Shown here one piece after another: positions 2,784 to 60,843 of a DNA stretch of 64,000 nucleotides. Origin of the DNA: Cyanidioschyzon merolae. Lineage: Eukaryota. A program made the translations under genes and the position numbers. The stretch lies in assembly GCA_000091205.1 (NCBI GenBank), contig AP006486.2. The stretch is one strand, 5' to 3'. Below the pieces are notes generated by a model that worked only from the letters and a program-made list of their open reading frames with translations, ran no database searches and was not told the DNA's origin. Within the stretch, counting starts at the first letter, position 1; each line of letters starts with the position of its first letter.

Positions 2784-3478
2784 TGGATTTTCATTTCTTG
2801 AAATGAACGCACTTCTTCTTGCACTTAGGTGGGACCTTCCCGATGATAAAGAAGAACTTACGGAAGAAAGACGGGATGCATATCAGCGTTACCGTGTACT
2901 GAACATTTCAGCAATGCGCCCAGTGGAGCGATCATTACGTTTCTCGACGGGAAGCACTCCATGGATGGGGTCGAACCACGGAGAGTACGGAGGAGTGAAA
3001 ACCACTTCTACCCCGACAGAATTAGCAAAAGCTGGAACGCGACGTGAATGATGAAGTGCAACTTTATGCAATAGAGGGGTATTATCAGACGTGGGGAGAA
3101 GGCTTCAATAGTTGGACATACTGAATGCTGTTGTATGAACCCTCTCTACGAGCGAAACCAACGGCGCCAAACGAATCCTCTTGAACTAGAACAGATGAAG
3201 ATGTCCTCGTTCCCTACCAGCTCGATCGTACATACAGCGGGCTTGCTCTGAGCCAATACGCATATTCGTGCCGACTGTTTCATCTGAAGCAAGTCACATC
3301 GACCGAAAAAACATACCGACATCTCTGTTCTTCACAACCATGGCGACTTTCGAGGAACTCTGTAGTTGTGATGTTGGTGGAAGATGGCTGTGCATGAAAT
3401 TTGACTGCTTTTTTTGCGAATGTATCCCAGTGTATTCAGTAGCATACGAACAAGCTGTTGGGAAACAGAGACGCCCGT
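2500..3478 (-). mobile_element. Inverted-repeat arm A: ~1 kb copy of the TnpB/Fanzor-like repeat family, about 99% identical to arm B (9187-10170) in opposite orientation
   Basis: ORF pairs are near-identical between arms: 2436..2783(-) vs 9882..10418(+), 2380..2760(+) vs 9905..10279(-), 3268..3480(+) vs 9176..9397(-), 2889..3071(-) vs 9594..9776(+). Nucleotide identity breaks at 3478/9187 (inner ends) and near 2500/10170 (outer ends). Confidence 0.85.
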
Positions 3479-8691: not shown

Positions 8692-8989
8692 TCTGAACGC
8701 ACAATCGTAGAGCCGTTACGCGTTCATCGATAGTGTGGGATATCGATGAGGGGATAGCGGGATCCCCCATATGCACAATGATGATGGATGTCCAGGTAAG
8801 AAGCCACCATCCGACCTGGGCCCGCTCAGTTCCAGTCTCCGCTAACAATACCTCCGTTCAGAGATGGTACAGTCTTTCAACTCGAATGTGTTTTAGCCTC
8901 GCTGCGGTGCATAGCTTGAGATCGAATTCAGTATGCAGTGTAACCAATAGATCGGGGACGAATTGACTGCAGCTATGCATTCTTCAATG

Positions 8990-10300
8990 ACCGGCGCACG
9001 GAGGACTGCATTCCTCCTCCTTCAGTTCAGACATACTACAGTACACAGATGGTGTAGGAGCACTGACAGAAAGAAGTAAGTGCGCTCCGCGCCAAAAACC
9101 GATATTCTCAAAGACTGGTTGAGGTCAATTGTAGAAAACGACCGATTGGTCATCTTGCGGAAAGCAAAAGCGACGTTAGAATCCATCCGGGCGTCTCTGT
9201 TTCCCAACAGCTTGTTCGTATGCTACTGAATACACTGGGATACATTCGCAAAAAAAGCAGTCAAATTTCATGCACAGCCATCTTCCACCAACATCACAAC
9301 TACAGAGTTCCTCGAAAGTCGCCATGGTTGTGAAGAACAGAGATGTCGGTATGTTTTTTCCGTCGATGTGACTTGCTTCAGATGAAACAGTCGGCACGAA
9401 TATGCGTATTGGCTCAGAGCAAACCCGCTGTACGTACGATCGAGCTGGTAGGGAACGAGGACATCTTCATCTGTTCTAGTTCAAGAGGATTCGTTTGGCG
9501 CCGTTGGTTTCGCTCGTAGAGAGGGTCCATACAACGGCATTCAGTATGTCCAACTATTGAAGCCTTCTCCCCACGTCTGATAACGCCCCTCTATTGCATA
9601 AAGTTGCACTTCATCATTCACGTCGCGTTCCAGCTTTTGCTAATTCTGTCGGGGTAGAAGTGGTTTTCACTCCTCCGTACTCTCCGTGGTTCGACCCCAT
9701 CCATGGAGTGCTTCCCGTCGAGAAACGTAATGATCGCTCCACTGGGCGCATTGCTGAAATGTTCAGTACACGGTAACGCTGATATGCATCCCGTCTTTCT
9801 TCCGTAAGTTCTTCTTTATCATCGGGAAGGTCCCACCTAAGTGCAAGAAGAAGTGCGTTCATTTCAAGAAATGAAAATCCAGTGGATGAGCTTGGGTTTA
9901 AACTTCAGAAGGTCGTGATGGCGAGCAGGCAGCGGAGCGCTTCGGCGATAGAAAAGCACGGGGCGCTCACGGAGCATCGGTTGGCACTGAGAGCAAGAAG
10001 CTTAGGAATCCGTGAAGTGATGCGTTCCATTAGTGGCAATGAGCCTATAGAGTTCGGGAATCGAGACTTGAGTGCTGCCATCAATATCAGGAGATGTGCG
10101 GTGCCGGAGAAGAGACTCGAGGATCTGACGCGATCCAGCTCCATGGGGCAGCCTCTCAGGATCGAAGCGTTCCTGCGTAAACTGGAAGCGATAGAATGCA
10201 ACCGGCCAAAAAGGCTAGCTGGCGTCCGTGCGTCGGTATTAGTTGCCCCGATATGGTCGTGGGGCATTTTTGGTTCCATTGACCGTATAATGGACAGGAG
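8990..10300 (+). mobile_element. Inverted-repeat arm B plus flanking family homology: a TnpB/Fanzor-like element copy
   Basis: 9187-10170 is about 99% identical to arm A. 8990-9187 and 10170-10300 are more weakly homologous to copies at 36.9-38.0 kb, 40.9-41.1 kb and 44.9-45.05 kb. It contains the RuvC-III motif 'GNRDLSAAINIRRCAV' in ORF 9882..10418. Confidence 0.7.
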
Positions 10301-33996: not shown

Positions 33997-36600
33997 TCAT
34001 GCGACAGTCGTCGGGCTTTCTTGAAGCAGATCATCTCCCTGCAGCAGATGCTCTGCAGCTTCCAGCACCTGTTCGTATCGGTAACGCCCCTGCAAACAGC
34101 CGAACAGCGGGTGCGCCTGTAGTTTCATGGATAGTATCTTTGGTGAGGTGGCGCCCCATGCGAAGCGAGCCAACAACCGCGAGCAAGTGCGTAGCACCGG
34201 CACTTGCACAATGAGCTGCTGCCATTTCTCGTCCGCGAGTACTGCATTCAGAGACTCCAGTTCGGTACTGCCGCCATTGAGGATGCGTTCACGAAGACGT
34301 TCCATTCCGGGCGTTTCACCCAGCGCACCCTCTGCGGCGAGACATAGCTCACAGCGACCGCACTTGTGCACCAGAATCTCATTGTAGTGGGCGCATAACG
34401 AGCGGGCAAAACAACGAGAGCCCCGGCTCGCAACCCATTTGTTCCCCGGCCTAGGTTCTGCTCCGAGGAAAAGCGCCGCAGTGGTGCGAATCCGAAAAAG
34501 CTCTTGCTGTTCACGTCGGAGCATGGAGCGGTAAAGATCGTCCGCAAGCTGCTGCATATCACTCGGCTTCGCCACAATACGAAATACGTGATACAGATGG
34601 CTGAACTTGATACTTCTAACGATACCCAAAGACTGGAGAAGCTCGAGAGCAGAGTAGACAAGTTCCCGGGTGGTCGCTCCAGACGGCACGGGATGCGCAA
34701 ATGCCGCCGTTCGTGCTCGCACGACATCGTGGATATCGATCCGCATGAATAGGTTGTTGTCGCTGGTGCGACGCCGGCCAACCTTCACAGACGGATTCAA
34801 GATGAGCCGGGCCGCTCGCCAAACCCCTTCGGGCACAGAGACATCCCTCCTCAGGAGGTGCAAGGTCTCCTCGACACTCGTATTCGGCAGGAGATCGACC
34901 TCGCAGTGAGCGTAGTAGGCAGTTTGTTCCTCAATAAATCCTCCTTTCAAATCCAAGAAAGCAAGCAAAACCCGAATAGTAGTTTCCTCAATATCCAGCG
35001 CTCTTCCGCAGTTAAAGAAAGAAAGCGCCACCTGATCTTCGCGCACAGCGATCTTCTCCATGTACCGAATGTTCGGGCTTTCGGGAGCGTTAGCGCTAGC
35101 CGTCATGTGCTCCTCCGCGAGACCTACAGTGCTGCCAAAAAGCGACTCTAGAAGCGTATGAACAGCTCGGCGAGATGGGGTGCTGCTCAGCACAAAACTC
35201 TCGAGGGCGGGCAGATCATCAGCGCAGAGGAAAAGTTCACAGATGGCGGGTTCTCCATCGCGCCCCGCGCGTCCAATACTCTGTGTGTAGGCCTCGATGC
35301 TCTTACTGATGTTAAAGAGGTAAACGTAACGGACCTCTTGCTTGTGAATGCCCATTCCAAACGCGATAGTGGCCACAATAATTGTATCTCGCCCGCTCAT
35401 GAAGATGTTTTGGGCCGAAGCTCGCTCCTCTGTCGTCATGCCGGCATGGTAGGCAACCGCAGGAAGGCTGTACATGGTGACCAGGAGCTCCGCCACTGCC
35501 GTCGCAGTCTTCTGCGTCGTGACGTACACGATGGTGCTTCCGCGCGGTCGGGACAGCAAGCGTTCCACGAGTAAGAATACCCGCCGCTCCAGGCGCCCAT
35601 CCTTGTCGGTATCGGGTGACCAGGTTCCGAAGAATTCGCCTACAGGCGTACAGCGTAGCGTCAAGTTCGGCCGGTGCACACTCGCACGGATCACGTTCTC
35701 AGAATGGATATGGAAATGACGACAGATGTCGTCTACAACGCGTGTGGTCGCGGTGGCGGTTAGCGCCAGACAGACTCTGGCACCCGCGCCCTGAGCGAAC
35801 TGCCGCAGGAGCAGATACTCGGGACGAAATGTGTGGCCCCATTCGGAAAGGCAGTGCGCCTCGTCGACGACGAAGAGTGAGACCTGCAGTCTTGCAATGA
35901 CTTGGCGGAATTTCTCATTCACAAAGCGCTCGGGTGCGACGAACAGAATGCGTATGGCACGTTCACTGAGCAGCCGATAGGTTTGCCGCACCTCTGGGGC
36001 CGACATCCCTGAATGAATATGCATCGCTGGGATACCCTGGTTCTGGAGCATCTCGACATGGTCACGCATGAGGGCGATAAGTGGAGAGACCACCAGCGTC
36101 AGTCCATCGAGCAACATTGCAGGGACCTGGAAACAGAGCGATTTACCGCCGCCAGTGGGAAATATCGCCAACGAAGAGTGTCCCTGTAAAACGCGCAGAA
36201 TCACTTCTAGTTGGCCCGGCCAAAACTCCGATAGACCAAAGTGCTCCTTCAGACACTTCATCGCGCGCAGTGCCTGAGCCTCCATATCTGATGAGCCGTC
36301 TCCAGCGCTCTGACTCGGAGGCGCTCGCGGAGGCGGTGGCTGCGGCCTCTGGTAGGGCGCACCTCTCGCCCCAGAAGCGGACTGCCAAGGCGTTCGTGTG
36401 CCGCGCTTTGAAGCGCCGGCACGACGGTACTCTTTCGGGAAGAACTTGTAGCGATCATAGTTTGTTGCATCCCGACAGACAAGGGGCTGTCGCTGAGCGT
36501 TCGATCCGCGGGCTCGTTGACGCTCACCAGCGGCGAGCTCCTGCCATTTATGTACCAGCGCGTTGTGGATAAAACCACCGCATTTGCACAACGCCCACAT
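33997..36600 (-). CDS. RecQ-family ATP-dependent DNA helicase
   Basis: Motif 0/I 'FWPGQLEVILRVLQGHSSLAIFPTGGGKSLCFQVPA', 'LVVSPLIALMRDHVEMLQNQGIPA' and DEAH box 'FVVDEAHCLSEWGHTFRPEY' are present, followed by helicase-C 'VYVTTQKTA...AYHAGM' and 'IHKQEVRYVYLFNISKSIEAYTQSIGRAGRDG'. Confidence 0.9.
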   Translation of the reverse strand: MWALCKCGGFIHNALVHKWQELAAGERQRARGSNAQRQPLVCRDATNYDRYKFFPKEYRRAGASKRGTRTPWQSASGARGAPYQRPQPPPPRAPPSQSAGDGSSDMEAQALRAMKCLKEHFGLSEFWPGQLEVILRVLQGHSSLAIFPTGGGKSLCFQVPAMLLDGLTLVVSPLIALMRDHVEMLQNQGIPAMHIHSGMSAPEVRQTYRLLSERAIRILFVAPERFVNEKFRQVIARLQVSLFVVDEAHCLSEWGHTFRPEYLLLRQFAQGAGARVCLALTATATTRVVDDICRHFHIHSENVIRASVHRPNLTLRCTPVGEFFGTWSPDTDKDGRLERRVFLLVERLLSRPRGSTIVYVTTQKTATAVAELLVTMYSLPAVAYHAGMTTEERASAQNIFMSGRDTIIVATIAFGMGIHKQEVRYVYLFNISKSIEAYTQSIGRAGRDGEPAICELFLCADDLPALESFVLSSTPSRRAVHTLLESLFGSTVGLAEEHMTASANAPESPNIRYMEKIAVREDQVALSFFNCGRALDIEETTIRVLLAFLDLKGGFIEEQTAYYAHCEVDLLPNTSVEETLHLLRRDVSVPEGVWRAARLILNPSVKVGRRRTSDNNLFMRIDIHDVVRARTAAFAHPVPSGATTRELVYSALELLQSLGIVRSIKFSHLYHVFRIVAKPSDMQQLADDLYRSMLRREQQELFRIRTTAALFLGAEPRPGNKWVASRGSRCFARSLCAHYNEILVHKCGRCELCLAAEGALGETPGMERLRERILNGGSTELESLNAVLADEKWQQLIVQVPVLRTCSRLLARFAWGATSPKILSMKLQAHPLFGCLQGRYRYEQVLEAAEHLLQGDDLLQESPTTVA

Positions 36601-36919
36601 ATAAAGTCACACAGTAACGCCAGCTCAGTTCCAACTCGTCGATCCTACTGCGTTGCGGGCATTTTGCTATGTTCGGCCGTTTACGACACCGAAACTATGA
36701 TGAACGCGACCTGCGCCTAGCGCTGGAAGCGCGTCCCACGGCATCGTGGTACTGGTGAGGTGCATTCTCGACAGCGCGTTGAACAGCAGCACTTCTTTGA
36801 GTCGTTCAACTCAGGTTTGTTTCATCACTGCTGGAGCGTATAGCAGGAGATCGGCATTACGATGCAATGTAGTGTATATATTGTATACGATTTGAATGTA
36901 GGATATATGCTTTACGGAA

Positions 36920-38040
36920 TTATGCACGGAGGACTACGTTCCTCCTTCAGGTCAGTCGTACCCCAGTACTCTGACAACTGGGGAACACTGAAAGGAGCAA
37001 TTATATGTGCACAGCGGTAAAAACCGATACTCTCACAACCTGCTTTGGTTCAGTGGTAGAAAACAACCCGTGGATCAACTTATAGGAAGCAAAAGCGACG
37101 ATTGTAGATAACACAAGCGTCACTGTGCCTCAATAGTTTGTTGGTATGGTACTGAAATCACTGGGATAACGTCACATTAAAAGTCCAATTTCATTCAGAG
37201 CCATCTTCCTCGGACGTCACTACGACAGAATTCCCCGAAAGACGCTATCGATATGAAGCACAGGGACATCGGTTTGTTCTGTCAGTCGATGAGACGTCTT
37301 TCCCACGAGACCGTCCCAGCATATATCGGTATTTGCCGAGAGGAAACCAATTGAATATAAGATCGAACTCGAATAGAAGGCTCATACCACAGCATTCCAT
37401 TTATCCAACCATTGATGACGCTTTCCACGTCTGACAACGTCCTTCTCTTGCACATCGTTGCCTTTCATCGTTCCCTTCGCATTCTTGTTTTTGCGAGTTC
37501 TATCTTCCGGAACTCCTTCTCCCTTGCTGAAAGGTCCTCACCTAAGTCCATTATGAGAGGCGTTCATTTTAAAGCAATAAAAAATCCGTGGGATAGAGAT
37601 GGACATGGAATTCGAGGATTCTGGAGGGCACCAATCGCCAGATTCGACAAAGAAACGAAAAAATTTTCTTCTCGCTGATCATCGAGTGAAGAGGAGCGAG
37701 TAACGAAGAAGAAGAGAGGAGATAGACGAGAATATTTGTTTGCCCGACGGAGCGACGACGAGACCATTGTGGCACAGAGGGCACGAGTTCTAGGAATTCT
37801 TGAATGCATGAATTCGACCAGCGGCAATATATGCAAGGAGTTCATGAACTGAGACTTCATGCCAGCCGACAAGATCAGGAGATGAGTGGGACTGAAGCCG
37901 CAACCCGAAAAGGTGACGCGACTGAATTCTATGGGACAGCCTCCCAGACTCCAATTGTACCTGGATAAACTGAAACCGATACCAGGTGGCCGCTCGAAAA
38001 AGGGAGACGTCTGCAGATCGATATTCGGTTACGCTACGAG
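36920..38040 (+). mobile_element. Degraded third copy (copy C) of the TnpB/Fanzor-like repeat unit
   Basis: 36920-37320 aligns with 8990-9400 at the nucleotide level, e.g. 'cacggaggactacgttcctcc...aaaaaccgatactctca...ggaagcaaaagcgacg...cagccatcttcc'. 37900-38040 encodes 'MGQPPRLQLYLDKLKPIPGGRSKKGDVC', homologous to the C-terminal tails of the other copies ('MGQPLKLEVCRTKLKP', 'GGRSKKLGRVC'). Confidence 0.5.
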
Positions 38041-38283
38041 ATCGTGAAACGTTCTTCGGCTAACCGTACCCCTTGAAGGCTTTCTCTGAGCGTGTGTACA
38101 GTGCACTGTGACAGCCACCACGGTGCTGACGAGTGCACTAGGAAGCAGTTTACCAGCGAAGTTTTGGAGCAGAGCTTGACGTACGAGCTCACTCGAGAGC
38201 CAGCGTGCTCTGATTCGCTAGTGGCTCCTGGTGCACCTGGAGCGTAATATTGAATAGAGGCTTTTTAACGAAAGCGCCGGGTA

Positions 38284-39354
38284 ATGTTCACACAAGCGAA
38301 CTTGCCGCTTGTTCGTCGAGGGTTTGCGTTACGTAGCGAGATTCCGGAACAGTGTTGCCCAAAACGGAGGTTGATTGTTTCGAGACCCAGTCGGGCAGCT
38401 TGGAGTCGCAAGTCACTGTTAGTACAACAACGGTCTGGCGTTGGTACGCTGTCTGCGCGGAGTTCTGTCCAGTTTGATCCAACCGAAGACTATTACGCAG
38501 TTTTAGGAGTGGAAAGCGACGCAGACCTGGCAACCATCAAGCGAGCATATCGCCGACTAGCCTTGCAGAACCACCCTGACGCGAATAAGGATCCGCAGGC
38601 ACGCGAGAAGTTCATTCGCATTCTGCGTGCTTATGAAGTGCTATCGAATGAGGACGCCCGCAAGCAATATGACTTGCAACGTCGCTCGCCGGGTTCGGGG
38701 CCTTTCTGGGGCATCGGAGGTCCTGGCGCGCAGCGGCGACGTTCCAGCAGCACCGAGGAGTACCCCGAGGACTTGAATGATTCTTTTGGAGCTATTTTCT
38801 CGGATCTTATGGAGCAGCTCGGACGTCTTTGGCAGGAGGGCACAAAAGAGAATGGTATTTTTGCAGATTTTGTCGAATTTCTAGAGAGCCAGGGTGCCAA
38901 TTGGGGCTCCCTGCGGAATGAGGACCTCAATAGCGTTCTCACTTCGAGTGATGAAGACGTTCTCCAAGCAGAACTGGATGATGCTCGTTTCGTGCGTGAG
39001 CAATGTGAGCAGCGACTACGCTTGCTTCAAAATTCTCTAGAACTCACCGAGCGGCGACGCGCGGAGCAGGAGCAACGAGCGAAAGATGCACATCTAAGTG
39101 CAGGAACCCAGCAGGAGGCCCGGTCTAAGGTGCATGAGCTCTCGCTGGAGGCGCGGAGACTTCAGTCTCGTATTCGCCAGGTTCAGTCCCTGATTGCTCG
39201 CCAGCGCTCCCGCGAGGGGTTGCTGCAGTCCCGTTTGGATGCAATTCGTCGCGTACAGGAGGCCCGTGCTGCTTCTGAGGAGAAAGTTCGGAATCTGAGA
39301 AGCGAGGTGGAGGAGGAATTGGAGAAATTGAAAAGGGACTTGGGCAAGCTCTGA
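38284..39354 (+). CDS. DnaJ (J-domain) protein with a C-terminal coiled coil
   Basis: The J domain 'DYYAVLGVESDADLATIKRAYRRLALQNHPDANKDPQAREKFIRILRAYEVLSNEDARKQYD' carries the HPD motif. The N-terminal region looks like a presequence. The C-terminus is heptad-rich (EQEQRAKDA...LQSRIRQVQSLIARQ). Confidence 0.85.
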   Translation: MFTQANLPLVRRGFALRSEIPEQCCPKRRLIVSRPSRAAWSRKSLLVQQRSGVGTLSARSSVQFDPTEDYYAVLGVESDADLATIKRAYRRLALQNHPDANKDPQAREKFIRILRAYEVLSNEDARKQYDLQRRSPGSGPFWGIGGPGAQRRRSSSTEEYPEDLNDSFGAIFSDLMEQLGRLWQEGTKENGIFADFVEFLESQGANWGSLRNEDLNSVLTSSDEDVLQAELDDARFVREQCEQRLRLLQNSLELTERRRAEQEQRAKDAHLSAGTQQEARSKVHELSLEARRLQSRIRQVQSLIARQRSREGLLQSRLDAIRRVQEARAASEEKVRNLRSEVEEELEKLKRDLGKL

Positions 39355-40594
39355 GAGCAGAACGAACCGTCGCAGTGGTTATCGTTCCTTCTTGCAATCC
39401 GCAGCAGCGTACCATACGTGCTTGCTCGGCACGCCGGCGTCATAGATCTTGGCGCGAGGCATTGCAAGAGATGTAACTCGCTGCGTTGCTGGATGAGTAG
39501 AAGCATCACAAGCGACTCGCTTAGTCCACAAAGGGTATTGCGACAAGCGCGCAATCGATGAACGATCAAAGACGGTGCAAGCAGCGCATTTTCAGAAGCC
39601 AGCATTGTTTGCAACTGCGCATGTGGTGATCGAAATGCTGCTTTGTGCTCGTTGAGCATCGGGTTGCAGATAGGCCTGCTGAATACGAATGTACAGAGGG
39701 GTTATCAAAGTCGTGGAACTGGAAGCTCGGAAGCCAGCGATGCTGCTGCTGCTGCTGCTACGTATCTCTGGGTGCTGCAGACACACGCGGTGTCCAGCGA
39801 TCGATGAGGCGATCTGCATATCCTCCCCTCGTTTATAGAGTAGATTTGCGATGTGTGTAGCGCCAACGCAAATCTGTAAATTCGCTCTTACTGCAGATAC
39901 TCGGCAAAAGGGTCGCACACTCGCGCTAGAATGCAAGAGCTAAACCAACTCGAACAGGCGCGCCTCTGACCTGAAGTAACGAGGCATTACTACGGGAAGA
40001 CACTCATGAACAGCGAATTCGCATTCCGAAATGCGTGGCAAACGGATCGCTCTCGCCTAGCCCGTATCATGCACCGTACCTGCAAGCGACGTTCATGCTG
40101 GCTTTTCGTAAGGTGCTCTAACCGGCTACGAGCATAGCACTCTTCTCGTGCAGCAAAGCAGTGTAAGGTGTCCAGCGCGTTCGCTTCGAGTACCGATCGT
40201 GCGCATATGGACTATTCCTGACATGAAACTCCGAGCCCTAGGCCGCAGTTCCCAGATCAGCATTTGATATGCAAGACGCTCCGTGACAGCCGCCAGTATC
40301 ACTCTACGGATCACATATTGGATCAGAAGGGAACGCGCATGAGAGCGCGTGGTTCCCACGGCGCCGAAGCAGCATGCTCCGCCCGCACATCATGAGGTAT
40401 CTGTGCTGTGGAGCCGCCAGCACCCCGATGTCAGGGCAGCAGCGCGAACTCGCGGCTTTTGTGGAGTCTGCGCACTCCGGGACACACCTGCAGGGTCATG
40501 GACACGGCAACAACAGCCACCGTGTCTGGCGGAAAGCCACAACACCACTTTTTTGGTTTGTCGAGGAGAATTTCGTTTCCGGTTTACAGCAACT

Positions 40595-41112
40595 CGCAAT
40601 GAGCGTACAAGGAATGCGCACGATGTTTTGTCGCAATACCGATACTTGAGTTCCGAACGTCGTATACACACCATGAGTTGGGATGTACACTTCAGAGGGT
40701 CGAGATGGAAAAGTGCCAGAGGAGTCCTGAGGAAATAGCAAAGTACGGACCGCTGACGGAGGAGCAAATGGAAAGGAGGGCAAAAGTGCGAGGACTTCTT
40801 GCACTGGTGAGTACAACGAATGATCGCAAGAAATGGATGGAGTTTGTGAATTGAGATTTTAATGCCGCTATCAATATCCGGAGATGTGCGGTGCTGGAGA
40901 GAAGACCTCCAGAGTCGACAAGACAGAACTTTGTTGGACACCCTCTCAAAGTGGAACTGCATGAGAAAAAATTGGAACCAGTAGGAGGTGGCCGGTCGAA
41001 TAAGAGTGGGAGGCGTCTGCACGACAGTTGGTGGCTTCTTGCCTAGGGCGGGCTTCTCGCCACTACTGTGCACTGCCGGCAGCAACGTTTTTCTTTTGAA
41101 AGGCATTTGTTG
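40595..41112 (+). mobile_element. 5'-truncated TnpB/Fanzor-like element copy (zinc-finger region through RuvC-III to the conserved 3' terminus), a pseudogene
   Basis: It is about 85-90% nucleotide identical to 44540-45054. It encodes '...VN*DFNAAINIRRCAVLERRPPESTRQNFVGHPLKVELHEKKLEPVGGGRSNKSGRRL' with in-frame stops. It ends in 'GGCAGCAACGTTTTTCTTTTGAAAGGCATTTGTTG' at 41112, 29 bp before the macro-domain ATG. Confidence 0.65.
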
Positions 41113-41140
41113 CTCGTGGGTGTGAGCGCCCGCAAGTACC

Positions 41141-41803
41141 ATGCGGGATAAGCTTGGCTTTCTCACGCCGTTCGGAATGAGCAGCAGTACGGTGTATCGC
41201 CTGCGTCCACCAGCACCTCAGACGACTCGGTTGGTACTGAAACAAGCCGACATCACTCGCGAAGCAGTTGATGCGATCGTCAATGCTGCGAACGAGCGCA
41301 TGCTAGGAGGTGGTGGCGTTGACGGCGCCATCCACCGAGCTGCTGGTAAAGAGCTACTGGAGGCTTGTAAGCGGGTACCCGAAAAGCGTCCTGGTGTGCG
41401 GTGTCCTACTGGTGAAGCGGTTCCAATAAAGATCACATGGCCTGTTTCCGAGGGGAACTTGCCTCAGGTGCGCTATATCATAAACACGGTGGGACCGATT
41501 TACCAGAACGCGGAGAAGAGTGCGCCACTTTTGCGCTCGGCGTATCGTAACTCCCTTCTCACAGCAATCGAGCACAACTGTCGATCAATTGCTTTTCCGA
41601 CGATATCTTGCGGCGTGTATGGATATCCTCTTCGAGAGGCCGCTCGAGTTGCACTCGAGGCAGTACAAGACACGCTCGGGGAATCACCGCAGCAGTCGTT
41701 GCAAGAGGTGCGTTTCTGTCTATTCAGTGAGGACGCCTTGAAGACGTGGACACTGGCTGCTGAGCAGCTTCAACTGGAACGCGTGAAAGAAGGCGCTTCA
41801 TAG
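41141..41803 (+). CDS. Macro-domain (ADP-ribose-binding / MacroD-like) protein
   Basis: 'DITREAVDAIVNAANERMLGGGGVDGAIHRAAG' together with 'YIINTVGP' and 'SIAFPTISCGVYGYP' form the canonical macro-domain signature. Confidence 0.85.
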   Translation: MRDKLGFLTPFGMSSSTVYRLRPPAPQTTRLVLKQADITREAVDAIVNAANERMLGGGGVDGAIHRAAGKELLEACKRVPEKRPGVRCPTGEAVPIKITWPVSEGNLPQVRYIINTVGPIYQNAEKSAPLLRSAYRNSLLTAIEHNCRSIAFPTISCGVYGYPLREAARVALEAVQDTLGESPQQSLQEVRFCLFSEDALKTWTLAAEQLQLERVKEGAS

Positions 41804-42709
41804 AAGTATGCTCCAGACATGCGTCTTTATGACAGCGCTATCGATATACCTTGAGTCGCTGCCTCAACCGATATGCGCCTGGCATGCTCAAGCACTTGCA
41901 TAGATGCCAAGTGCGGAACCTGGTGTTTTCGTTGCTCCAAGTCGACTTAGGGTTCCGGTGGAAGGTGCTCCTTCTGTTGAAAAGCGGACGTACACTAGTA
42001 GCAGAATTCAAATCAGTTCCTTATTCCAGCGTCCGTGCGGCATGCATAACAAGCAAAGGGAATAAACGTATATCCGTGCTTGGGAACACTACCGTACCTA
42101 GTTTGTCTACGATCAATAATACTAACGAAACACTTAATGACTAGTGTGACGCATACCTCATCCGCCCAAGCGTAAGCCGCAGCGAAAACTACGCGTGTGC
42201 TGGAGTCATCGAGGGGTTTCGTGCCGGGCCCCAGCGACCCGTTGTATTACAGGGCGGTACTGCTATGGGCAGTAGTGTCGGCACCAGCGACAGAGCCTAG
42301 CGCAGGGGATCACTCTATGTGAGTTTCCGATCTAGGACACCTGATTTCCGCTGCAGTGCGTCGGTGAGAACACGCATGTGCTAATGCGACGTCGGACACG
42401 TGTCCTTCATCGATCCGTGTAGCGTCTCGCGAGGTGCACGCATCGCGCTCAGTGAGTGCACCTGGCAGAACTGGCACTCAACTGACACGACGCGCATGCC
42501 GCCGCCGTTGAAGGGAAACGCAATCTTGATCTCTAGCGTGTAGCTCTAACGTAACAGTTGTATTTTCGTTAATTTCATAGCCAAGTATAGTTTTCAGTTC
42601 GATTGTGTTTCAACCCTCAAGTAAAAATATTCGATTGATTTGTTGCAGTATATAACAGAAGCGTTTAAAGAGGTTTCTTTTTCAAAAAAAAGACTGAAAA
42701 AGGAAAGTT

Positions 42710-45054
42710 ATGGAAAAGCAAGTCGATGATCCTGGAGCTCAGTGTCGCTGGTTGCCAGAAAAACAAAAAAAAACAGTGCCGAGTCCAGAAGAAAAGGAAG
42801 AGAAAAAGAGGCAAAAGGGGGATGCCCTACGTCGAAGGCTGCAAGAAAGACGACTTTACGACGAGATGATGGTGGAAGCCTGCCTTCTTCATTATATCGG
42901 AGATCCGTAGCAGGCAAACTTGCGAGACGCTATCAGAAACCGTGTCGACTCATACTCCAAGAGTATTGTCAAGGCGTCTTCAGGACTGATGCATGTAGCA
43001 ATGGAGGTGTATCGCGAAGTAACGGACATCGACACAGTCAAGATTCCGGAAGATTTTTTCAACAAGACATTTATTCGCCACCTTATCTTTGGTACAGGGG
43101 AAACGTCGAAGAGAAATGAGCGAGTGCATGCCCTCCACTGAAATCACCCCGAATACCGCTTCGATCGTACTCGGTTCAGGGGAGACGGGCATATTTACAC
43201 CTCCGGTGCGATGAAGTACCTCACGATCGTGAAGAAGCACTTGACGATGAACCTGGAACGTTTCATGACACGCGCCGTGTTTGTGCTGTGCCCGGGCCTC
43301 TCTCGCAAAGGAATATGGGCGGTTATCAATGGCATCACGAACGATAGTAAGAGCGAAAGAGAGATCGAATTCATCGGCAAGAAGCCGTCACGCAGGAGCA
43401 CAAATGAGGATTCCGTCATCCGTGCGGTCATAGAAGAGCACCGTGCAGTCTTGGGGTTGGCGAATCAAACAGACAAGATATCAGAGTTGAAAAAAGGATA
43501 GGGAAAGATACTATCGCCTCATCCTGCGCTATTTCGTGTTTCTGGACCGAGGGCTATAACGCAAGGCAGAGGTGCAGCTGAGTGAGGGAAAAAAATGAAG
43601 AGTGGGAGAGACGGAAGGCTGTCCTAATGGAGAAGCGCTTCAACGTGGTTCCAATGTGGAAAGTCAAGTCACATTTTGTGACTATCGACTCCAGCGTCCT
43701 TTACGGCATCACCTAGGAGATCAGTCCGGAGTTCATTGTCAGCAGGGAGAACTTCACCCGCGAAAACCTGGAGACATACTGGAAGAATATCTTCAATTTC
43801 AAACGTCTGAGAGTGAGCAAGCAAAAGTTGTTCACTGGGATGGTCGAAACCGATGGAGTAGCCATGTGTGTACACTATCGGCGGTTGAAGAAAGACCGTC
43901 CAGTTCCGCCCTCGGCTGCGCCCGTGACGAAGGATGAAGAAAAGGAGGAGGCGGATCCTGCAACGCAGGAGGTAGAGAATAACGACCTTGTCGTTGATGC
44001 GGCGAAGCATGAAGATGAGAAGGAGGCGGGTCCTGAGACGCAGAAAGTGCAGAATAACGACCTTGTCGTTGACGCGGACCCTGGGAATACGAATATCATA
44101 ACCATCGCTGTACCCAAACGTGCGGAAGATAGCACTGACGGTAACTTACGTCAGAAAGACATGCGTCTGTTGAGACTCTCGAGAGCGAGATACTATCGCG
44201 AATCCGGTATAATGATTCTAAGGTAGAAAATCGAGACGAAGAATGCAGGAATGAAGGATCACTTTGAGGCTTTGAGCAAGGTGATGGGCCGCGGAGCGGA
44301 CTGTAAAGCTTTTCGGAAATTCATGAAAGTTCGCGTTGCTCATTGGGATGCCTTGTGGGAGGAGTATGCCAAGCCCCGGTGGGTTCGTTTGCGTGTGAAT
44401 CTGTATTGCGGGAAGCAGCGTGCATTCGCGAACTTTTTCAATCAGTTGAGTGCCCTGAAGGAGGATGAAAATCAGAGGCTCGTAGTAGCGTATGGAGCAG
44501 GGCGATGGAAGACCCAAAAAGGGACTACGCCAGCTCCAACGACAAGAACGTACAAGGAGTGCGCCGGGCGTTTCGTCACGATACCTGTAGATGAGCTCCG
44601 AACATCGTATACACACCATGAACTGGGGTGTACACTTCAGTGGGTCGAGATGGAAAAGCCTCAGCGGAGCCCCAAGGCTATAGCAAAGTACGGACCGCTG
44701 ACGGAAGAGCAAATGGAAAGTAGGGCGAAAGTTCGTGGATTGCTTGCACTAGTAAGTACAACGAATGACGGCAAGAAACGTATGGAGTTTGTGTACCGAG
44801 CTTTTAACGCCGCTATCAATACACGGAGATATGCGGTGCTGGAGACGAGACCTCCAGTGTTGACACGAGAGAACTTTGTGAGACAACCGTTTAAAGTGAA
44901 ACTATATGAGAAACAATTGGAAGCAGTAGTTGGTGGCCGATCCAAAAAACTGGGACGCGTCTGCACTTTAGTTGGAGAAGTTTTGTCTACGGCGGGTCGC
45001 TCGCCATTACTGTACACTGGCGGCAGCGTTTTTCTTTTGAAAGGCGTTTGTTAT
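42710..45054 (+). mobile_element. Near-full-length TnpB/Fanzor-like (OMEGA-family RuvC nuclease) element, coding region disrupted
   Basis: Frame 2 (42710-43501) is interrupted by TAG and TGA. It switches to frame 0 (43602-43937) and then frame 1 (43813-45201), where an in-frame TAG at 44224 splits the ORF. Frame 1 carries RuvC-I '[17 protein letters not shown]', RuvC-II 'RFVTIPVDELRTSYTHHELG' and RuvC-III 'EFVYRAFNAAINTRRYAV'. The 3' terminus is shared with the 40.6-41.1 kb copy. Confidence 0.7.
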
Positions 45055-45201
45055 CGCTGCCGTGGCCAAAAGAAACTTTTAAAAGCGATCACGAGGCTTG
45101 ACCAAGACCGCACAAAGGCGACGGCTTGTGAGCAACAACAGAGGTGCTCTTCATGTCCAATGTCGAGCGGCACGAGGAGCCAAACGGAGCGCAGACGCTG
45201 A
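43813..45201 (+). pseudogene. TnpB/Fanzor-like RuvC nuclease reading frame: two ORFs in one frame split by a single TAG at 44224-44226
   Basis: ORFs 43813..44226 and 44251..45201 are both in frame 1 and give '...GIMILR*KIETKNAGMKDHFEAL...'. An internal 72-bp tandem duplication at 43947-44090 encodes '[14 protein letters not shown] / [14 protein letters not shown]'. Confidence 0.6.
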
Positions 45202-48200
45202 AGACCTGGCGAACGCTGGAGATCGCCGGGCTGGAGGTAAAGTTCCCCACAGAATTGGAACCGCACAAGCCGCAGTTGATCATTATGAACCAAGTGATAA
45301 GATGTTTGCAGCGGGCGCAAAACGCGTGCATAGAATCACCTACGGGAACGGGCAAGTCGTTGGCGTTACTCTGTTCGGCGCTGGCGTGGCTCGAAAAAGA
45401 GAAAGAGCGCTCAGAGCCCAGTCTATTAGCGGTTGCAAATCACGCTGATATGCACTCCGAATTTAAACCCGAAACTGAAGAACCCGCCGACGAGAAGCAA
45501 TCAATCCCGAAATTGCTGCCTGAGAGCCGCTCTGCGGCGGATGACTGCGGCGTTCAAGATGTCGACGACGACGACGATGATGATGACTTTACCAGCCGAC
45601 CGGCTCCGCGAGTATCGCAGTTGAAAAGCGCTTCACAGAGATGGCGTCAGCAAGGTGCTGTGGCTGGTACGCGGCATCGATATCCACTTTGTGGAAAGCA
45701 GGTCCCACTGAACCCGCTCTGCAGTGTCGCAGTGCACCTGGAGGGTACGAACCTTGCCGTACAGCAGAGGCACCCACGGATTTTCTTCTGTTCGCGTACG
45801 CACGCTCAACTCTCCCAGGTCATCGCAGAGATGCGCCGCACTCCATACGCTGGTAAGATGCGTTCCACACTGCTGGCGTCGCGGAAGCACTACTGCGTAC
45901 ATGAGGATATTCAGAGAGCGCCATCGACTCTGCAAGCGGAAGCTTGTCAGCGAGCCGTCCAGCTCAGCTTCATGGAGGAGGCCAAGTCTGCAGCTGATGC
46001 ATCCAGCACAGTAGCTGACCCTCTGGCAGGAATATCGCCCTGCTTCTATCATCACAGCGCCGCGGTGAGGCGAACAGCGTGTTCGGCCCCGCAGCCTTTT
46101 CAAATGGAAGATCTCGTGCAAGTCGGTCGCCACTGGCATGGTTGTCCGTATTTTGCATCTCGCTTTCTCGTCCATGGTGACATTCAAACGGAACCAAATC
46201 AAGACTCTGTTGAAGGATCAAGCGTCCCCGACGAACGCTCGCACACGGGAAGCGCTTCGTCTACGGATGGTGCCGTAAGCGCCCGGGCGACTTCATGTAC
46301 AACGCGGACACGAACGATCATAGAGCCTGCTGATATCATCTTTTCTCCATATTCATACCTTGTGGATCCGCTCATTCGTCGACGCATGGATATCGATATC
46401 ACCGGTGCCGTATTGATAATCGACGAAGCTCACAACATAGAAGAGGTGTGCTTAGAAGCGGCATCAGTAGACGTAAGTCTATCACAGGTGCAACGGGTTC
46501 TCCTGCAGCTAGATCACTATCTGGGGGTTCAGATGCCGGAAACAGAGCCCACCCTGGAGACACTGATGGTCCGGCGTCCGTCGTTGAATGGTACGGCGTT
46601 ACTTCGAGTGTTCCGCCACTGGTTGCAGGCCCTAGCGTCCTTCATTGAGACACGAATACCGCTGTTAGATGACATTCACGGCATTCCCGAAAGTCATCGT
46701 CCGACGTCTGGCCCATGCACTGCAGCGCAACGTCTTCATGCACAGGCCACGGTTTTCTGGCAAGACGGTGCTCTCTTGCATGAGTTAGAGGTAGGGTTTT
46801 TCCAAAATTTTGACTTTGAGCAGTGGAACTGGTCCATGGGCCAGTTAAACCGTTTTCTTGATCGCTGGCGTCAGAAACAGCAGCGCACGGTGCCGGCTTT
46901 GGCTTCAGGAATGGCGGCCTCGACGGGCTTTGGAACGGAAACAGCGACCGAAGAACATGCTGAACAGTCGGTGCAGGCGCGTCCCACGACGGGCGATGAG
47001 CGTGCAGAAACCGAGCCCCGCTTCGCGTCTCTGTGCGGTGAAGTGCTCCATCTGCTAGAACGCTTCCACATTGCGCTGCAGTTTATTTACGGCGGACAGA
47101 GCTCGAAGGGCGCAGCTGCACCTGCGGAGGCTTCCCTGCTGCACGCCACAGACTATAGACTTGTACTGAGACGCGAGATGCGCCAGGGCACCTACGGAGG
47201 AGTTGAATTCAAACTTGGACTTTGGTGCATGAATCCCGCAATTGCTTTTCGTCATCTGCGAGACAATGCGCGATCCATCGTGCTTACTTCGGGAACACTA
47301 TCGCCAATGGAATCTTTTCGAAGTGAACTTGCGACCGATTTTCTGTGTCAGACAGAATGCGACCACATTATCGATCCAGAGAAACACGTTCGAGTTTGCG
47401 TTGTGGGAACCAGCAGCTCCGGCGACCGTCTAGAGGGTTCCTACCGAACGAGCGCTACCTGGTCATATCAGGATGCCATCGGCGAAGCGCTTGCGCACTG
47501 CAGCGCACAGATTCCCGATGGTGTGCTCTGTTTCATGCCCTGCTATCGAGTCTTGGAGTCTATGTTGCAGCGCTGGAGCAGCACCGGCGCGATCGAGCGG
47601 ATTTGTGGTGCTAAGCGTCTCTTCATCGAGCGCTCTTCTGGACAAGTTATAACAGAATATGCGACCGAGACTGCTGGCGGATACAGACTTCAGCGTCGTG
47701 GTTGGCGCGACTCCTGCTTTACCCCTGCAAGGGAATATGGGACGGATGCATCTGTGGCGGCTCTCGGGGAACGGCCGAGCTCATTACGTGCTGCGTCTTC
47801 CAGTATCCTGTCTCGGGACCGGTCCAAGCGGAAACGACGCGGTGCTGGTCGAGCGTACACCTCCGCGTCAGCGTATGCAAACCGCGATGCTTTGCAGGTC
47901 TACTACGATGCGGTGGATGCAGCGCGGACTGAGACCACTGCGAGCGCACCGGTACCAGCTGCCAACGCGCGCTGTCGAATAACCGCTGATCACAAAAACG
48001 GGGCCATTATGCTGGCTGTTTGCCGGGGCAAGATCAGCGAAGGATTGAACTTTGCCGATCAGTACGGTCGCGCAGTCATTATGGTCGGTATTCCGTACCC
48101 CAATCTGACGGACACGTTTGTCCAGCTGAAGATGCGCTACAATGACGAGCGCAGCGGTGCAGTTTCTGGTGCTCCCATCAATGCTACGAGCACGAGTCGT

Positions 48201-48464
48201 CTGAGTGGCAAACAATGGTATGTTCTACAAGCGCATCGTACCGTGAACCAAGCTCTGGGAAGGTGCATTCGCAACCCTAAGGACTATGCGTCGATCATTC
48301 TTCTCGATGTTCGCTATCGCGATACGCGAACAGTGAACTGCATGTGTCGGTGGATCAGGGACCCGCTCCGCGATTATATTGCCAGGCACGGCCAGACGCT
48401 CACCCTAGAGGCAGCAGTCCGTGAAGTAGCAGAATTTTTCTTCCAGAAATATGACGCGAAATAG
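45144..48464 (+). CDS. FANCJ/BRIP1-like Rad3/XPD-family Fe-S DNA helicase (DEAH)
   Basis: Walker A 'ESPTGTGKSLALLCSALAW' is closest to the BRIP1 block. The Fe-S cysteines are 'HYCVHEDI...EACQRAV...SPCFYHH...HGCPYFA'. DEAH is 'IIDEAHNIEE'. The C-terminal HD2 blocks are 'GRAVIMVGIPYPNLTD' and 'QALGRCIRNPKDYASIILLDVRY'. Acidic and low-complexity inserts are present. The annotated start is overlapped by the end of the upstream Fanzor-like ORF. Confidence 0.9.
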   Translation: MLFMSNVERHEEPNGAQTLKTWRTLEIAGLEVKFPTELEPHKPQLIIMNQVIRCLQRAQNACIESPTGTGKSLALLCSALAWLEKEKERSEPSLLAVANHADMHSEFKPETEEPADEKQSIPKLLPESRSAADDCGVQDVDDDDDDDDFTSRPAPRVSQLKSASQRWRQQGAVAGTRHRYPLCGKQVPLNPLCSVAVHLEGTNLAVQQRHPRIFFCSRTHAQLSQVIAEMRRTPYAGKMRSTLLASRKHYCVHEDIQRAPSTLQAEACQRAVQLSFMEEAKSAADASSTVADPLAGISPCFYHHSAAVRRTACSAPQPFQMEDLVQVGRHWHGCPYFASRFLVHGDIQTEPNQDSVEGSSVPDERSHTGSASSTDGAVSARATSCTTRTRTIIEPADIIFSPYSYLVDPLIRRRMDIDITGAVLIIDEAHNIEEVCLEAASVDVSLSQVQRVLLQLDHYLGVQMPETEPTLETLMVRRPSLNGTALLRVFRHWLQALASFIETRIPLLDDIHGIPESHRPTSGPCTAAQRLHAQATVFWQDGALLHELEVGFFQNFDFEQWNWSMGQLNRFLDRWRQKQQRTVPALASGMAASTGFGTETATEEHAEQSVQARPTTGDERAETEPRFASLCGEVLHLLERFHIALQFIYGGQSSKGAAAPAEASLLHATDYRLVLRREMRQGTYGGVEFKLGLWCMNPAIAFRHLRDNARSIVLTSGTLSPMESFRSELATDFLCQTECDHIIDPEKHVRVCVVGTSSSGDRLEGSYRTSATWSYQDAIGEALAHCSAQIPDGVLCFMPCYRVLESMLQRWSSTGAIERICGAKRLFIERSSGQVITEYATETAGGYRLQRRGWRDSCFTPAREYGTDASVAALGERPSSLRAASSSILSRDRSKRKRRGAGRAYTSASAYANRDALQVYYDAVDAARTETTASAPVPAANARCRITADHKNGAIMLAVCRGKISEGLNFADQYGRAVIMVGIPYPNLTDTFVQLKMRYNDERSGAVSGAPINATSTSRLSGKQWYVLQAHRTVNQALGRCIRNPKDYASIILLDVRYRDTRTVNCMCRWIRDPLRDYIARHGQTLTLEAAVREVAEFFFQKYDAK

Positions 48465-51930: not shown

Positions 51931-52497
51931 CGATACGAACTGGTACCCTGCCGGACGTGCTAGCCGTTTGCAAAGCGTCGCCCATCGCTGGTGATATCAG
52001 CGCGAACCTGAATCCGCTGCATCATGTGCGTTTCAAGATGATCGAGTAGCAAGCACTGGTGCTCATGACACGTCATGAAAAGCATCGCCTATTATTATGA
52101 TCGCTTTCGCGACCGAAACGAGGTGCACGATATGCGATCCATGCATGAGCAGCCTTTTTCAGCAAGTTGCTCGCATGAACGCCATGCGTGCTCCGCCTGC
52201 TCCCCGAATGCACTTCATCTCGATAGCAGATACCTGATGCAGGCGGAGAATTTTAACGAATCCATGCCTCTTGGCTGCAGGCATAGAAAGAATCCATTGA
52301 GACGCTCGATTCGCGTGCGAAACGAATCATGCAACACGATTGTCTCGAGCGAGTTGCCTCAGCAGCCACGTCCATGAAATGCAGCGACTGTGCGTCATCT
52401 GAGGAACGCAAATCGCCAACAGCTGTCTGGAACGCGGGCGACGCGACATTGGTGCGAGCGCTGGCTGCGCATTCTAATCACGGGTGCAGGCATTCAA

Positions 52498-52753
52498 CAT
52501 TGTGCGTGCACTGCTAGAGGATATTATATGCGTGTCCAGCATTGTGCATGCACTGCTAGAGGATATTATATGCGTGTCCAGCTTTCTGCGTGCACTTCTA
52601 GAAGGATCATACATGCGTGTCCAGCTTTCTGCGTACAAATCTAGAAGGATCATACATGCGTGTCCAGCTTTCTGCGTACAAATCTAGAAGGATCATACAT
52701 GCGTGCTCAGCATTGTGCGTGCACTTCTAGAAGGATATTACATGCGTGTTCAG
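52498..52753. repeat. Minisatellite: about 6 tandem copies of a 42-43 bp unit
   Basis: Units are 'cattgtgcgtgcactgctagaggatattatatgcgtgtccag' and 'ctttctgcgt(g/a)ca(c/a)(t/a)tctagaaggatcatacatgcgtgtccag', repeated head-to-tail. The array lies in the intergenic region between the MT-A70-like and ABCC 3' ends. Confidence 0.85.
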
Positions 52754-53835
52754 GAGACCACGAGGTCGCGCGTTACTTGGGTATACAGAAGGCTAGATTA
52801 CGCGCCCGTAAGGGCTGCAACATATGGAAATGCAACAACAGCACCACAAGCTTGATGTACCCTACGGGAGGCGATACTCAGAGCGCGTGCGATTGATGAC
52901 AAGAATGTATGGTGCTTCACCTGCTCTGAACTAGATGCTATCCAAATTGGCATTTAGTGCTCTGTGGAGCGGCGGATCTATGCTCTGCCTACAGACTGGC
53001 TAGTTGGCACTGTACCGAAACAGGAATCATACAGTATTTCGCATCGAAAAATAACCTACCATCTACCATCAAGAGTGGATGCGAGGCTGCACAGCAACAG
53101 GCCCTGTTGCCGCGCACCAAGCGCGGACTTTTTGCGGCTGCGCCATGTTATTTGGAAACTCCAAGACCTTGCGCCTTTTCCTGCATATTTACTTAGAGCA
53201 TGGACGTACTCTTGGACGCTGGTGCAAGTTGTACAGGTGGCGTGAGCGCGCCGCGGGGGCCAGCATTGTCGTCGACCTAACCGCCTATCCTCTGTAACAT
53301 GAGACACTTTCAGCGGAGCCCGGTCAAGACGCTGTTGCCAGCCTGCGCTTCGCCCTAGAGCACGTTCTCAGTTGGAGATTCGGAAAACTGCTTCGAAGAC
53401 CAGCCGCTTCGATTTCGTTTGAGCCACGCCCAACACCATTGAACTGAAAGCGCTCGTCCCGGCATTCGTCAAACGCTGTAGAAAAACGAGAAGAGCAGAC
53501 CAGCTCACGGACTCGTGTGTTTGCTTGGGTACCAGAACACCTCCGTATGAGGGCATGATGCGAGCTGGGTCAGGTGACGTCAAGCGGCGGCTGCAGCGCC
53601 CTTTAACAGCGCCCTCCCAAACGAACGCGTAGCCAATGTCCAGGGGTCGCGCCTCCATCCATTCCTAAGCCTTGACCTCTAGTCTCCGTGCACGCAGCCT
53701 CGATGCTGAAGGCTTTTTTCTTCAAATTCTCTACAGGGAACCAAGTATAGGAAAGGTTCAGTCCTACTCGTTTCGTTTTGATCTGTCCAAGCAAGTATCG
53801 CTCGTGCGGACCAGCCGAGGCACCGCCGAGCCCGG

Positions 53836-60149: not shown

Positions 60150-60551
60150 CGCCTAGTCCTGATGGAGAGTCCACAGACAGTCAGAGCAGCGAACAATGTT
60201 TGCGATTTGCGAGGGTTCATGAGTACCCATGCCCAGACGCCTCCTAGTCATTTTTGACCGGTCGCCTGTTATCGGTTCCTGTGCTTATCCAGGTACGCTT
60301 CGGGCTTGAGAGGCTGTACCATAATGTTAGGTCGTCTTCAGCACCACACATCGTCTAATGTTGATAGCAGCGTTGAAGACTCGGTGGACAAAGTCCGTGC
60401 GTTTATTGCCGCGGCTTGGACTCATCCATTTAAGGATTGTTAGAACTCGTTCCTTCAGTGCGACTACAGTCTCGTCATCGTGCTGTCGGACAGGCGCCAA
60501 TTCCCGTGTATCTCCCCTTTTCTTGGTCCTCTTCGCGCGATGGTAGGCCAC
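60150..60551 (-). mobile_element. TnpB/Fanzor-like element fragment (RuvC-III and tail) directly upstream of, and co-oriented with, the ABCC gene
   Basis: ORF 60327..60551(-) ends with 'TDFVHRVFNAAINIRRCVVLKTT'. Downstream on the minus strand, 'MTRRRLGMG' resembles the 'GGRSKKLGRVC / SGRRLHDS' tails of the other copies. Confidence 0.5.
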
Positions 60552-60843
60552 GAGAGGATTTTTTCATTTTTTGTCGAAACCGGGGATGACGGCTCTCCTG
60601 CATCCAGACGTCCATGTCTATACATTTCGCTTGGATTTTTAATTTCTCCAAATGAACGCACTTCGAAAACGTCTGCTATAAACTGCGACAAAGCATTTGA
60701 TGACATGCACCTGGATGCGGCGTAAAATTGAGGTGAAAGACAACAAGCAAAGTGTCCATAAAAGAAGGACAGCGTGTTTATCGTGCTGAACAGCTACGTT
60801 GCCTTTCCCAACCAGGATGATGAAACGTCTTCCACACGATCGC

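Follow-up and report, generated by a model that had tools for sequence, protein, structure and literature searches.

In this study I describe two copies of the transposon family CMe-1A in a 64-kb stretch of the genome of the alga Cyanidioschyzon merolae 10D (contig AP006486.2; this whole stretch is called the window, and unless a locus is named all coordinates refer to it). Both copies end at a sharply defined boundary that they share with their relatives, and the last ~105 nucleotides (nt) before this boundary fold into three helices of the sense strand, formed by the last codons of a Fanzor1 gene, by the surroundings of its stop codon, and by a terminal hairpin of 10 base pairs (bp) that ends in GGCGTT. 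These hairpins are retained across subfamilies of the element. The mechanism best supported, and in my estimate a somewhat better than even prospect, is that this right end encodes the scaffold of an omegaRNA, with the flanking DNA as its guide; in TnpB-Fanzor systems, the 3' end of the omegaRNA lies ~11-21 nt inside the flanking DNA, which is the guide. In addition, host start codons closely follow the right ends of this family, in sense orientation, at a frequency far above the chance expectation.

The two copies, here called D and E, were compared by a blastn search of the window against itself, in which 40601-41111 and 44546-45052 are 81.6% identical over 511 nt without large gaps, while a repeat search gave 84% identity for the first 300 nt. 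An earlier, sequence-only reading of this DNA had put the identity at 85-90% and begun both copies 6 nt too early; the repeat itself is real, but its identity is slightly lower. That reading had also proposed a shared terminus followed by unrelated host sequence, and the alignment of D with E bears this out: both carry the consensus '...GGCAGC..CGTTTTTCTTTTGAAAGGC(A/G)TTTGTT', their likeness stops sharply at 41111/45052, and the flanks beyond are unrelated. The distance of 29 nt between the end of D (41112) and the ATG of a macro-domain gene (41141) was given correctly, whereas the ~90 bp assigned to the helicase gene behind E apply to a GTG at 45144; its first ATG, at 45153, lies ~100 nt from the end of E (45052).

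A search with a covariance model for the terminal ~100 nt matched only D and E in the window (72 and 77 bits, E ~1e-16), with the next-best match at 13 bits, and gave 85 more matches in 82 related loci. In total there are 87 matches, of which 67 are distinct, and the shared terminus is thus present in other copies, as had been proposed. A scan of metagenome contigs yielded 354 relatives, and the comparison of 3' ends used 80 fetched loci, whose ends align with D and E to the same point. In 36 independent flanks, the information content is high through GGCGTT (41107 in D, 45048 in E), followed by a G/T-rich bias of 0.1-0.5 bit over ~11 nt and by zero beyond. The family-level end therefore lies ~5 nt before the coordinate of the sequence-only reading. 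Small subgroups of right ends share 6-11 additional bases (e.g. 'GTTTCCAGGGG'), and one subgroup shows a terminal pyrimidine tract and then 'TTTCCAG|G'.

The family was described in C. merolae by Bao and Jurka in 2013 as CMe-1A, with ~150 copies ~80% identical to their consensus, a length of ~3 kb, no terminal inverted repeats (TIRs), target-site duplications (TSDs) and class left open at the time, and a 5' segment of 635 bp in common with a separate repeat, TE-N2_CMe (PMC3627910). I assign D and E to CMe-1A by their match to this published description rather than to the Repbase consensus sequence, because they are 82% alike and E measures 3.06 kb. The organism is the same (a RecQ-like protein encoded in the window is 100% identical to C. 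merolae 10D XP_005535481.1), there is a single Fanzor1 open reading frame (ORF) without TIRs, and a 5' module of ~635-650 bp also stands alone, in many loci. The exact RecQ match rules out a kinetoplastid, oomycete or giant-virus source, each considered at first; exact-sequence look-ups of proteins from the window had given no record. E differs in that it bears another 5' module (41996-42440) in place of TE-N2. The 2013 description predates omegaRNAs and does not include the right-end structure (PMC3627910), and a full-text literature search returned no paper describing an omegaRNA of this family. The sequence-only reading did not recognise CMe-1A, yet its two inferences on the nature of the repeat are sound: the two repeated stretches are 3' parts of a TnpB-like (Fanzor1) transposon, as profile homology indicates, and the terminus is the element's right end, as the junction shared across relatives confirms.

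The repeat of ~650 bp, evidently TE-N2_CMe, is found either fused 5' of Fanzor cores or alone; such modules are located at 4001-4605 on the minus strand of the window, adjoining an older Fanzor remnant (A, below), and in two other loci (L001, 4341-4988; L051, 5878-6447). The left end of this repeat, 'ATTTTGTTTTCGATGACAAAACGTTTAC', is similar to the right end of the Fanzor elements, in direct orientation. Other copies have a 5' module of the 41996-42440 type, or none.

Copy D (40601-41112; this and all following features of D and E are on the plus strand) is a 5'-truncated 3' fragment of 512 nt, comprising the last ~137 codons of the Fanzor1 gene and the non-coding tail. Its start is sharp at 40601-40608 in all comparisons, its translation is 76% identical to the conceptual protein of E (tblastn), and its RuvC-III motif carries an in-frame stop ('FVN*DFNAAINIRR'). 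Copy E (41996-45052) is a near full-length element of ~3.06 kb, in which a 5' module (41996-42440) common to four other loci (L045, L008, L031, L007) precedes the core (42441-45052). As read from the alignment, all 5' variants of the family meet at a putative hairpin at the left end of the core (42445-42459, GCGCUC-agu-GAGUGC). The Fanzor1 pseudogene of E (42710-44990) has four in-frame stops and two frameshifts, and its conceptual product, after bridging these, is 750 amino acids (aa) long. E retains the RuvC-I DPG (44077-44085) and the RuvC-II DEL, but its RuvC-III reads 'YRAFNAAIN', with the catalytic Asp changed to Ala, and a mutation has turned its stop codon into TAC (44988-44990), so that the ORF 44251-45201 reads through. 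Judged by these lesions, D and E are old, inactivated copies, fossils of which neither encodes an active nuclease. A tandem repeat with a 75-nt unit in the Fanzor ORF of E (43928-44077) encodes an acidic linker of 25-aa units directly ahead of the RuvC-I strand 'VVGADPG', as also in the homologues P0001, P0005 and P0007; the unit is present in 2 to at least 5 copies among homologues, and every unit ends like the RuvC-I strand.

Six-frame translation identifies D and E as the 3' part of a TnpB-like gene, with motifs such as 'DPGNTNI', 'VDE(F/L)RTSYTHH' and the 'NRDFNAAINIRR' type. The conceptual pseudogene protein alone found no useful match in Pfam or the PDB. Close homologues of this protein in JGI metagenomes number 37 (50-78% identity, with the annotation PF26935/DUF8286); two more are distant, and one of these has a Cas12f1-like TNB domain. 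A second homologue search with a mixed alignment recovered the close family only. A profile search of 1.84 billion representative proteins returned 4473 related clusters, and in an alignment of 53 diverse members the split RuvC triad of the C-terminal half (D484, E656, R724-D725) is invariant. The 53-member profile matches three PDB sequences only: PpFz1 from Parasitella (9CF0, E = 1.4e-24), SpuFz1 from Spizellomyces (8GKH, E = 5.6e-16) and GtFz1 from Guillardia (9CER, E = 2.7e-14). All three are Fanzor1, and the family is therefore Fanzor1; the close-family profile alone reached SpuFz1 at E = 0.0023.

The Cys4 zinc finger (TNB / OrfB_Zn_ribbon) between RuvC-II and RuvC-III is absent in CMe-1A-type proteins, which read 'TSYTHHELGCTLQRVEMEKCQRSPE...' in this place and have no CxxC pairs. 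The corresponding model PF07282 matches P0001 at E = 0.23, versus 2.4e-8 for the distant relative P0037, which keeps CxxC...CxxxC, and its match is weak in 6 of 10 wider relatives. In P0001 and P0005, and at 44590-44680 in the window, 'TSYTHHELGCTLQRVEMEKCQRS' stands instead of the Cys4, together with an insert of ~40 aa, 'KYGPLTEEQMERRAKVRGLLALVSTT'. By its sequence this region is a divergent TNB, and the profile homology to Fanzor1 is not overturned by it. AlphaFold2, run on P0005 with a shallow alignment, gave no usable model (pLDDT 36.6).

As the predicted proteins of relatives end in '...GGRSKKxGRRLHVSWRxxx*', the natural stop of D is the TAG at 41044-41046, followed by ~65 nt of non-coding tail. 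The first predicted helix of D, H_A (41010-41040), covers the last ~12 codons, where GAGGCGUCU pairs with a 3' arm that has partly decayed in this copy; it is a candidate SL1-like stem. The second, H_B (41044-41065), is a GC-rich hairpin that encloses the stop codon (UAG-GGCGGG-cuu-CUCGCC-a-CUA). It is followed by the motif ACTACTGT(A/G)CAC (41062-41073), non-coding, near-invariant in the family and predicted to be single-stranded, and by the terminal hairpin H_C (41083-41107; AACGUUUUUC-uuuu-GAAAGGCAUU), where family conservation ends at GGC(A/G)TT. In E, the right-end module was matched by covariance model R1 at 44950-45051 (77 bits), with H_A at 44954-44962/44976-44984, H_B at 44991-45005, the motif at 45006-45017 and the terminal hairpin at 45025-45048. 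By analogy with SpuFz1 (PMC10432273), the would-be guide of ~15-20 nt corresponds to 41108-41128 in D, ending 13 nt before the ATG at 41141; in E it may be placed at 45049-45069, 84-104 nt before the helicase ATG at 45153. The flanks of right ends are unrelated save for a weak G/T bias.

Single-sequence folds of 65 distinct ends nearly always contain the terminal and the stop-codon hairpins; the third folded element is the helix of the last codons, GAGGCGUCU with AGACGUUUC (7-9 bp). Two subfamilies have terminal hairpins of the same length of 10 bp but of different sequence and register, CGUCGUUCGA-cuu-UCGAACGGCG versus the D/E-type AACGUUUUUC-uuuu-GAAAGGCGUU. For a structure defined by hand on 22 sequences, 85% of cells are paired, and 8 pairs are changed on both sides; of 500 shuffles, 4 attain this number. 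The covariance model derived from this structure gave the 87 matches that make up alignment A10, in which 80.6% of cells are paired and changes on both sides occur in 17 pairs (58 cells), with four of five measures exceeding all 500 shuffles, all slid controls lower, and 10 of 10 terminal-hairpin pairs covarying; as A10 was fitted to the structure of the model, these values favour that structure, and this has to be counted against the reading as an omegaRNA. G.U cells outnumber A.C cells by ~3:1 (238 vs. 78), which places the pairing on the sense strand. The best-preserved copies fold at z = -3.8 and -3.3 relative to shuffled sequence. In the last 10 codons, third positions are more conserved (0.90) than first and second ones (0.88), opposite to the pattern in the remaining ORF, which is one hint of constraint at the nucleotide level.

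Several further observations weigh against an omegaRNA. RNAalifold predicted no structure from the full 65-sequence alignment; within the subfamily of D and E, the hairpins are 87-94% paired with no covariation above shuffles; and for the tails of D and E themselves, folding does not surpass that of shuffled sequence (z = -1.3 and -0.6). The structure check proposed by the sequence-only reading thus has a divided outcome, with covariation across subfamilies and sense-strand hairpins on one side, and these nulls on the other. The majority frequency in the tail (0.72-0.92) is no higher than at third codon positions (0.74-0.89), so that conservation of its sequence reflects common descent only. 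Nearly all copies are pseudogenes, and the quality of the tail does not track the integrity of the ORF, a comparison that is uninformative, since hardly any copy is uninterrupted and the model favours subfamily 2. The absence of the usual Cys4 TNB zinc finger makes nuclease competence uncertain. Finally, left junctions are heterogeneous among loci, with a weak G preference before left ends and no target-adjacent motif (TAM) defined.

In spite of these points, scaffold plus guide is the best reading of the right end, because its layout mirrors that of the SpuFz1 and GtFz1 omegaRNAs; this is a resemblance and not a test. SpuFz1 and GtFz1 (Saito 2023, PMC10432273; Xu 2024, PMC11423790) are homologous proteins of single-ORF elements. 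The GtFz1 omegaRNA overlaps 17 codons (PMC10432273), the omegaRNAs of Fz1 systems consist of a 7-bp SL1, then 1-3 more stem-loops and then the guide (PMC11423790), and every tested Fanzor1 uses an omegaRNA from its 3' end (PMC10432273, PMC11423790). In CMe-1A likewise, the right-end structure overlaps the last codons, as in GtFz1, and several stem-loops stand directly before the flank. The differences are that Spu-1 is characterised by inverted repeats of 30 nt, a duplication of TA and the TAM CA, whereas TIRs are absent from CMe-1A and neither a TAM nor a TSD is defined for it, and that the CMe-1A right end shares no sequence with the SpuFz1 and GtFz1 RNAs, its protein being without the Cys4 zinc finger. 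In the bacterial ISDra2 of the IS200/IS605 family (cited in PMC10432273), the scaffold of the TnpB guide RNA shares sequence with both the nuclease gene, at its 3' end, and the hairpin of the right end, and the guide is flanking DNA. CMe-1A resembles ISDra2 in its end hairpins in direct orientation and its lack of TIRs, and differs from this much smaller element in that no TnpA Y1 transposase was found in the CMe-1A element or in the window.

By analogy with these systems, I infer transcription, guide use, cleavage and homing as follows. The last ~105 nt, that is, the final ~12 codons with their helix of 7-9 bp, the stop-codon hairpin, the invariant ACUACUGUACAC and the 10-bp hairpin ending in GGCGUU, would form an omegaRNA scaffold, transcribed with the sense transcript or processed from it. 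Its 5' end would lie near the 'GGGAGGCGTCTGCAC' codons (the last ~12), and the RNA would run ~15-20 nt into the flank, which would serve as the guide. The protein would come in trans from an intact Fanzor copy, and the ribonucleoprotein would cleave a matching site that adjoins a TAM and is free of the transposon; this may help the element to be retained or copied anew, as has been shown for relatives among TnpB and Fanzor systems. In D and E, the module is probably a fossil, though a plausible candidate for a guide-RNA module. What the sequence-only reading called a candidate omegaRNA scaffold stands as far as conserved sense-strand hairpins laid out like those of Fanzor1 omegaRNAs are concerned, with the reservation that D and E are fossils with unremarkable folds.

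The main rival to the omegaRNA is that the terminus acts solely as a cis-acting signal for transposition, its hairpins being read as single-stranded DNA by a transposase of the HUH/IS200-IS605 or the Helitron2 kind. Each end of the core carries a hairpin (42445-42459 and 45025-45048), which also counts against the omegaRNA, and the left end of TE-N2 resembles the right end in direct and not in inverted orientation. Its other arguments are that CMe-1A is without TIRs (PMC3627910), that hairpins of single-stranded DNA also tolerate G.T pairs, and that D is truncated at its 5' end with an intact 3' end, as is frequent in the Fanzor1 elements CRe-1/2/3 borne on Helitron2 in Chlamydomonas (PMC3627910). 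The likeness to CRe-1/2/3 extends to terminal hairpins and a T-rich 5' junction (PMC3627910), but these elements have TSDs of variable length, and none was seen around D; nor was a RepHel partner identified in the window. However, the constrained, structured region of ~105 nt reaches ~45 nt into the ORF and exceeds a typical end-recognition site, no transposase gene was found in the element or the window (the area searched), and the protein is a bona fide Fanzor1, of which all tested ones use a 3'-end omegaRNA (PMC10432273, PMC11423790). I consider a transposition signal alone unlikely, at perhaps a third of the weight of an omegaRNA; as both roles overlap at the right end of IS200/IS605 elements, they are not exclusive.

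The location of the right ends with respect to host genes is biased. For 33 independent right ends, the next ORF of at least 150 aa was sought within 600 nt, and it lies on the same strand in 20 and on the opposite strand in 6 (orientation p = 0.009). Eleven of the 33 end no more than 60 nt from the ATG (offsets 12, 13, 13, 16, 31, 36, 38, 38, 48, 52 and 53 nt), whereas random intergenic positions fall that close in 2.2% of cases in the window and in 5-8% in two long loci (binomial p ~2e-9 at p0 = 0.03, under a crude null with ORF-based genes and unmatched intergenic lengths). The loci concerned are L012, L033, L046, L023, L041, L022, L015, L054, L003 and L079. The ORFs behind the right ends belong to diverse host genes, such as an HCO3 transporter, a carboxyl transferase, PTH2, TACC and a hydrolase, and the sequences upstream of their ATGs have nothing in common. 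In the window, copy D is directly followed by the macro-domain gene (PF01661, E = 2.9e-39; 41141-41803, plus strand) and copy E by a DEAD_2/Helicase_C_2 helicase gene of the XPD/FANCJ type (45153-48464, plus strand); together with two older remnants, C and F, all of these copies point toward the next host gene (right end to ATG: 41112 to 41141, 45052 to 45153, 38015 to 38284, and 60224 to 60003 on the minus strand). Target choice, selection or co-option could each cause this association.

In a second alternative, the tail is an element of the mRNA or of gene regulation, either the Fanzor 3' UTR (untranslated region) with a signal for termination or polyadenylation, or an outward promoter or 5' leader for the host gene. 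A hairpin followed by a U/G-rich stretch looks terminator-like, one subgroup ends in the pyrimidine tract and 'TTTCCAG' motif described above, and the 11 of 33 right ends within 60 nt of a same-strand ATG, with an orientation of 20 to 6, mean that such host genes would need transcription from or through the element. Nevertheless, neither promoter nor poly(A) motifs came to light, part of the structure lies in coding sequence, the hairpin is kept at a shifted register, which would not be expected of a promoter, and in a compact genome the insertion bias may instead stem from target choice or from selection. A regulatory tail is improbable on balance. Slightly more improbable still is that many right-end modules were co-opted, whether as promoter or leader of the downstream gene or as nuclease-dead, RNA-guided regulators, a eukaryotic counterpart of TldR. 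TldRs are factors derived from TnpB. As for the omegaRNA itself, right ends directly before host ATGs imply that the putative guide would cover the host 5' leader.

That the tail has no RNA function, past or present, and merely shows residual identity between copies with incidental hairpins, would agree with a tail only as conserved as synonymous sites, with the missing covariation in subfamily 1, the RNAalifold null and the unremarkable z-scores of D and E, but it is improbable to much the same degree as a regulatory tail, given covariation across subfamilies above all shuffles and slid controls, two 10-bp terminal hairpins of different sequence at the same place, G.U cells far in excess of A.C cells, and the z-scores of -3.3 to -3.8 in the best copies.

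The window contains seven Fanzor remnants. Besides D and E, these are a very old remnant at 599-1108 (plus strand), visible at the protein level only (28% identical to the conceptual protein of E over its residues 548-719), A (2432-3790, minus), B (8871-10238, plus), C (36800-38015, plus) and F (60224-60659, minus). The D/E-type tail is absent from A, B, C and F. Segments 2432-3477 (minus) and 9188-10233 (plus) are inverted copies of older remnants, 96% identical and 5.7 kb apart, whose likeness breaks off abruptly at 'GGCGTC(T/C)G', ~95 nt short of where the D/E terminus would align; C and F cease to match each other at the same motif. Inspection by eye showed no evident TSD around D or the complete loci, and the fetched loci share no host sequence with the window that would provide orthologous or empty sites. 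The 747-aa ORF of L030 is out of frame at its N terminus and has lost its stop. An apparent synteny of Fanzor upstream of a DEAD_2 helicase (L001, 6001-11529) is treated as coincidence, the helicases being paralogues at 27-41% identity.

Outside these elements, the RecQ-like helicase mentioned above (33997-36600, minus strand) has its best matches outside the Cyanidiales in bacterial RecQ proteins of Planctomycetes and Gammaproteobacteria (37-40% identity), which suggests that the C. merolae gene is of bacterial type or horizontally acquired. An intergenic array at 52495-52774 consists of ~6 tandem units of 42/43 nt (AGGATCATACATGCGTGTCCAGCTTTCTGCGTACAAATCTAGA). Rfam gave no match, neither in the whole window at the gathering threshold nor in 40500-45300 at E <= 1, and no tRNAs were found in the window.

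As the element family and the omegaRNA principle are both published and both window copies are dead, the finding is confirmatory in nature. C. merolae is a genetically tractable, almost intron-free model alga with efficient homologous recombination. If the right end is a true omegaRNA, this alga would offer a natural Fanzor1 system with ~150 genomic guides for study in vivo, and one that comes from a thermo-acidophile and is without the canonical zinc finger. More interesting as a lead is the strong link, in sense orientation, between right ends and host start codons, as it bears on how these elements choose their sites or survive there, and on whether neighbouring genes are influenced by them.

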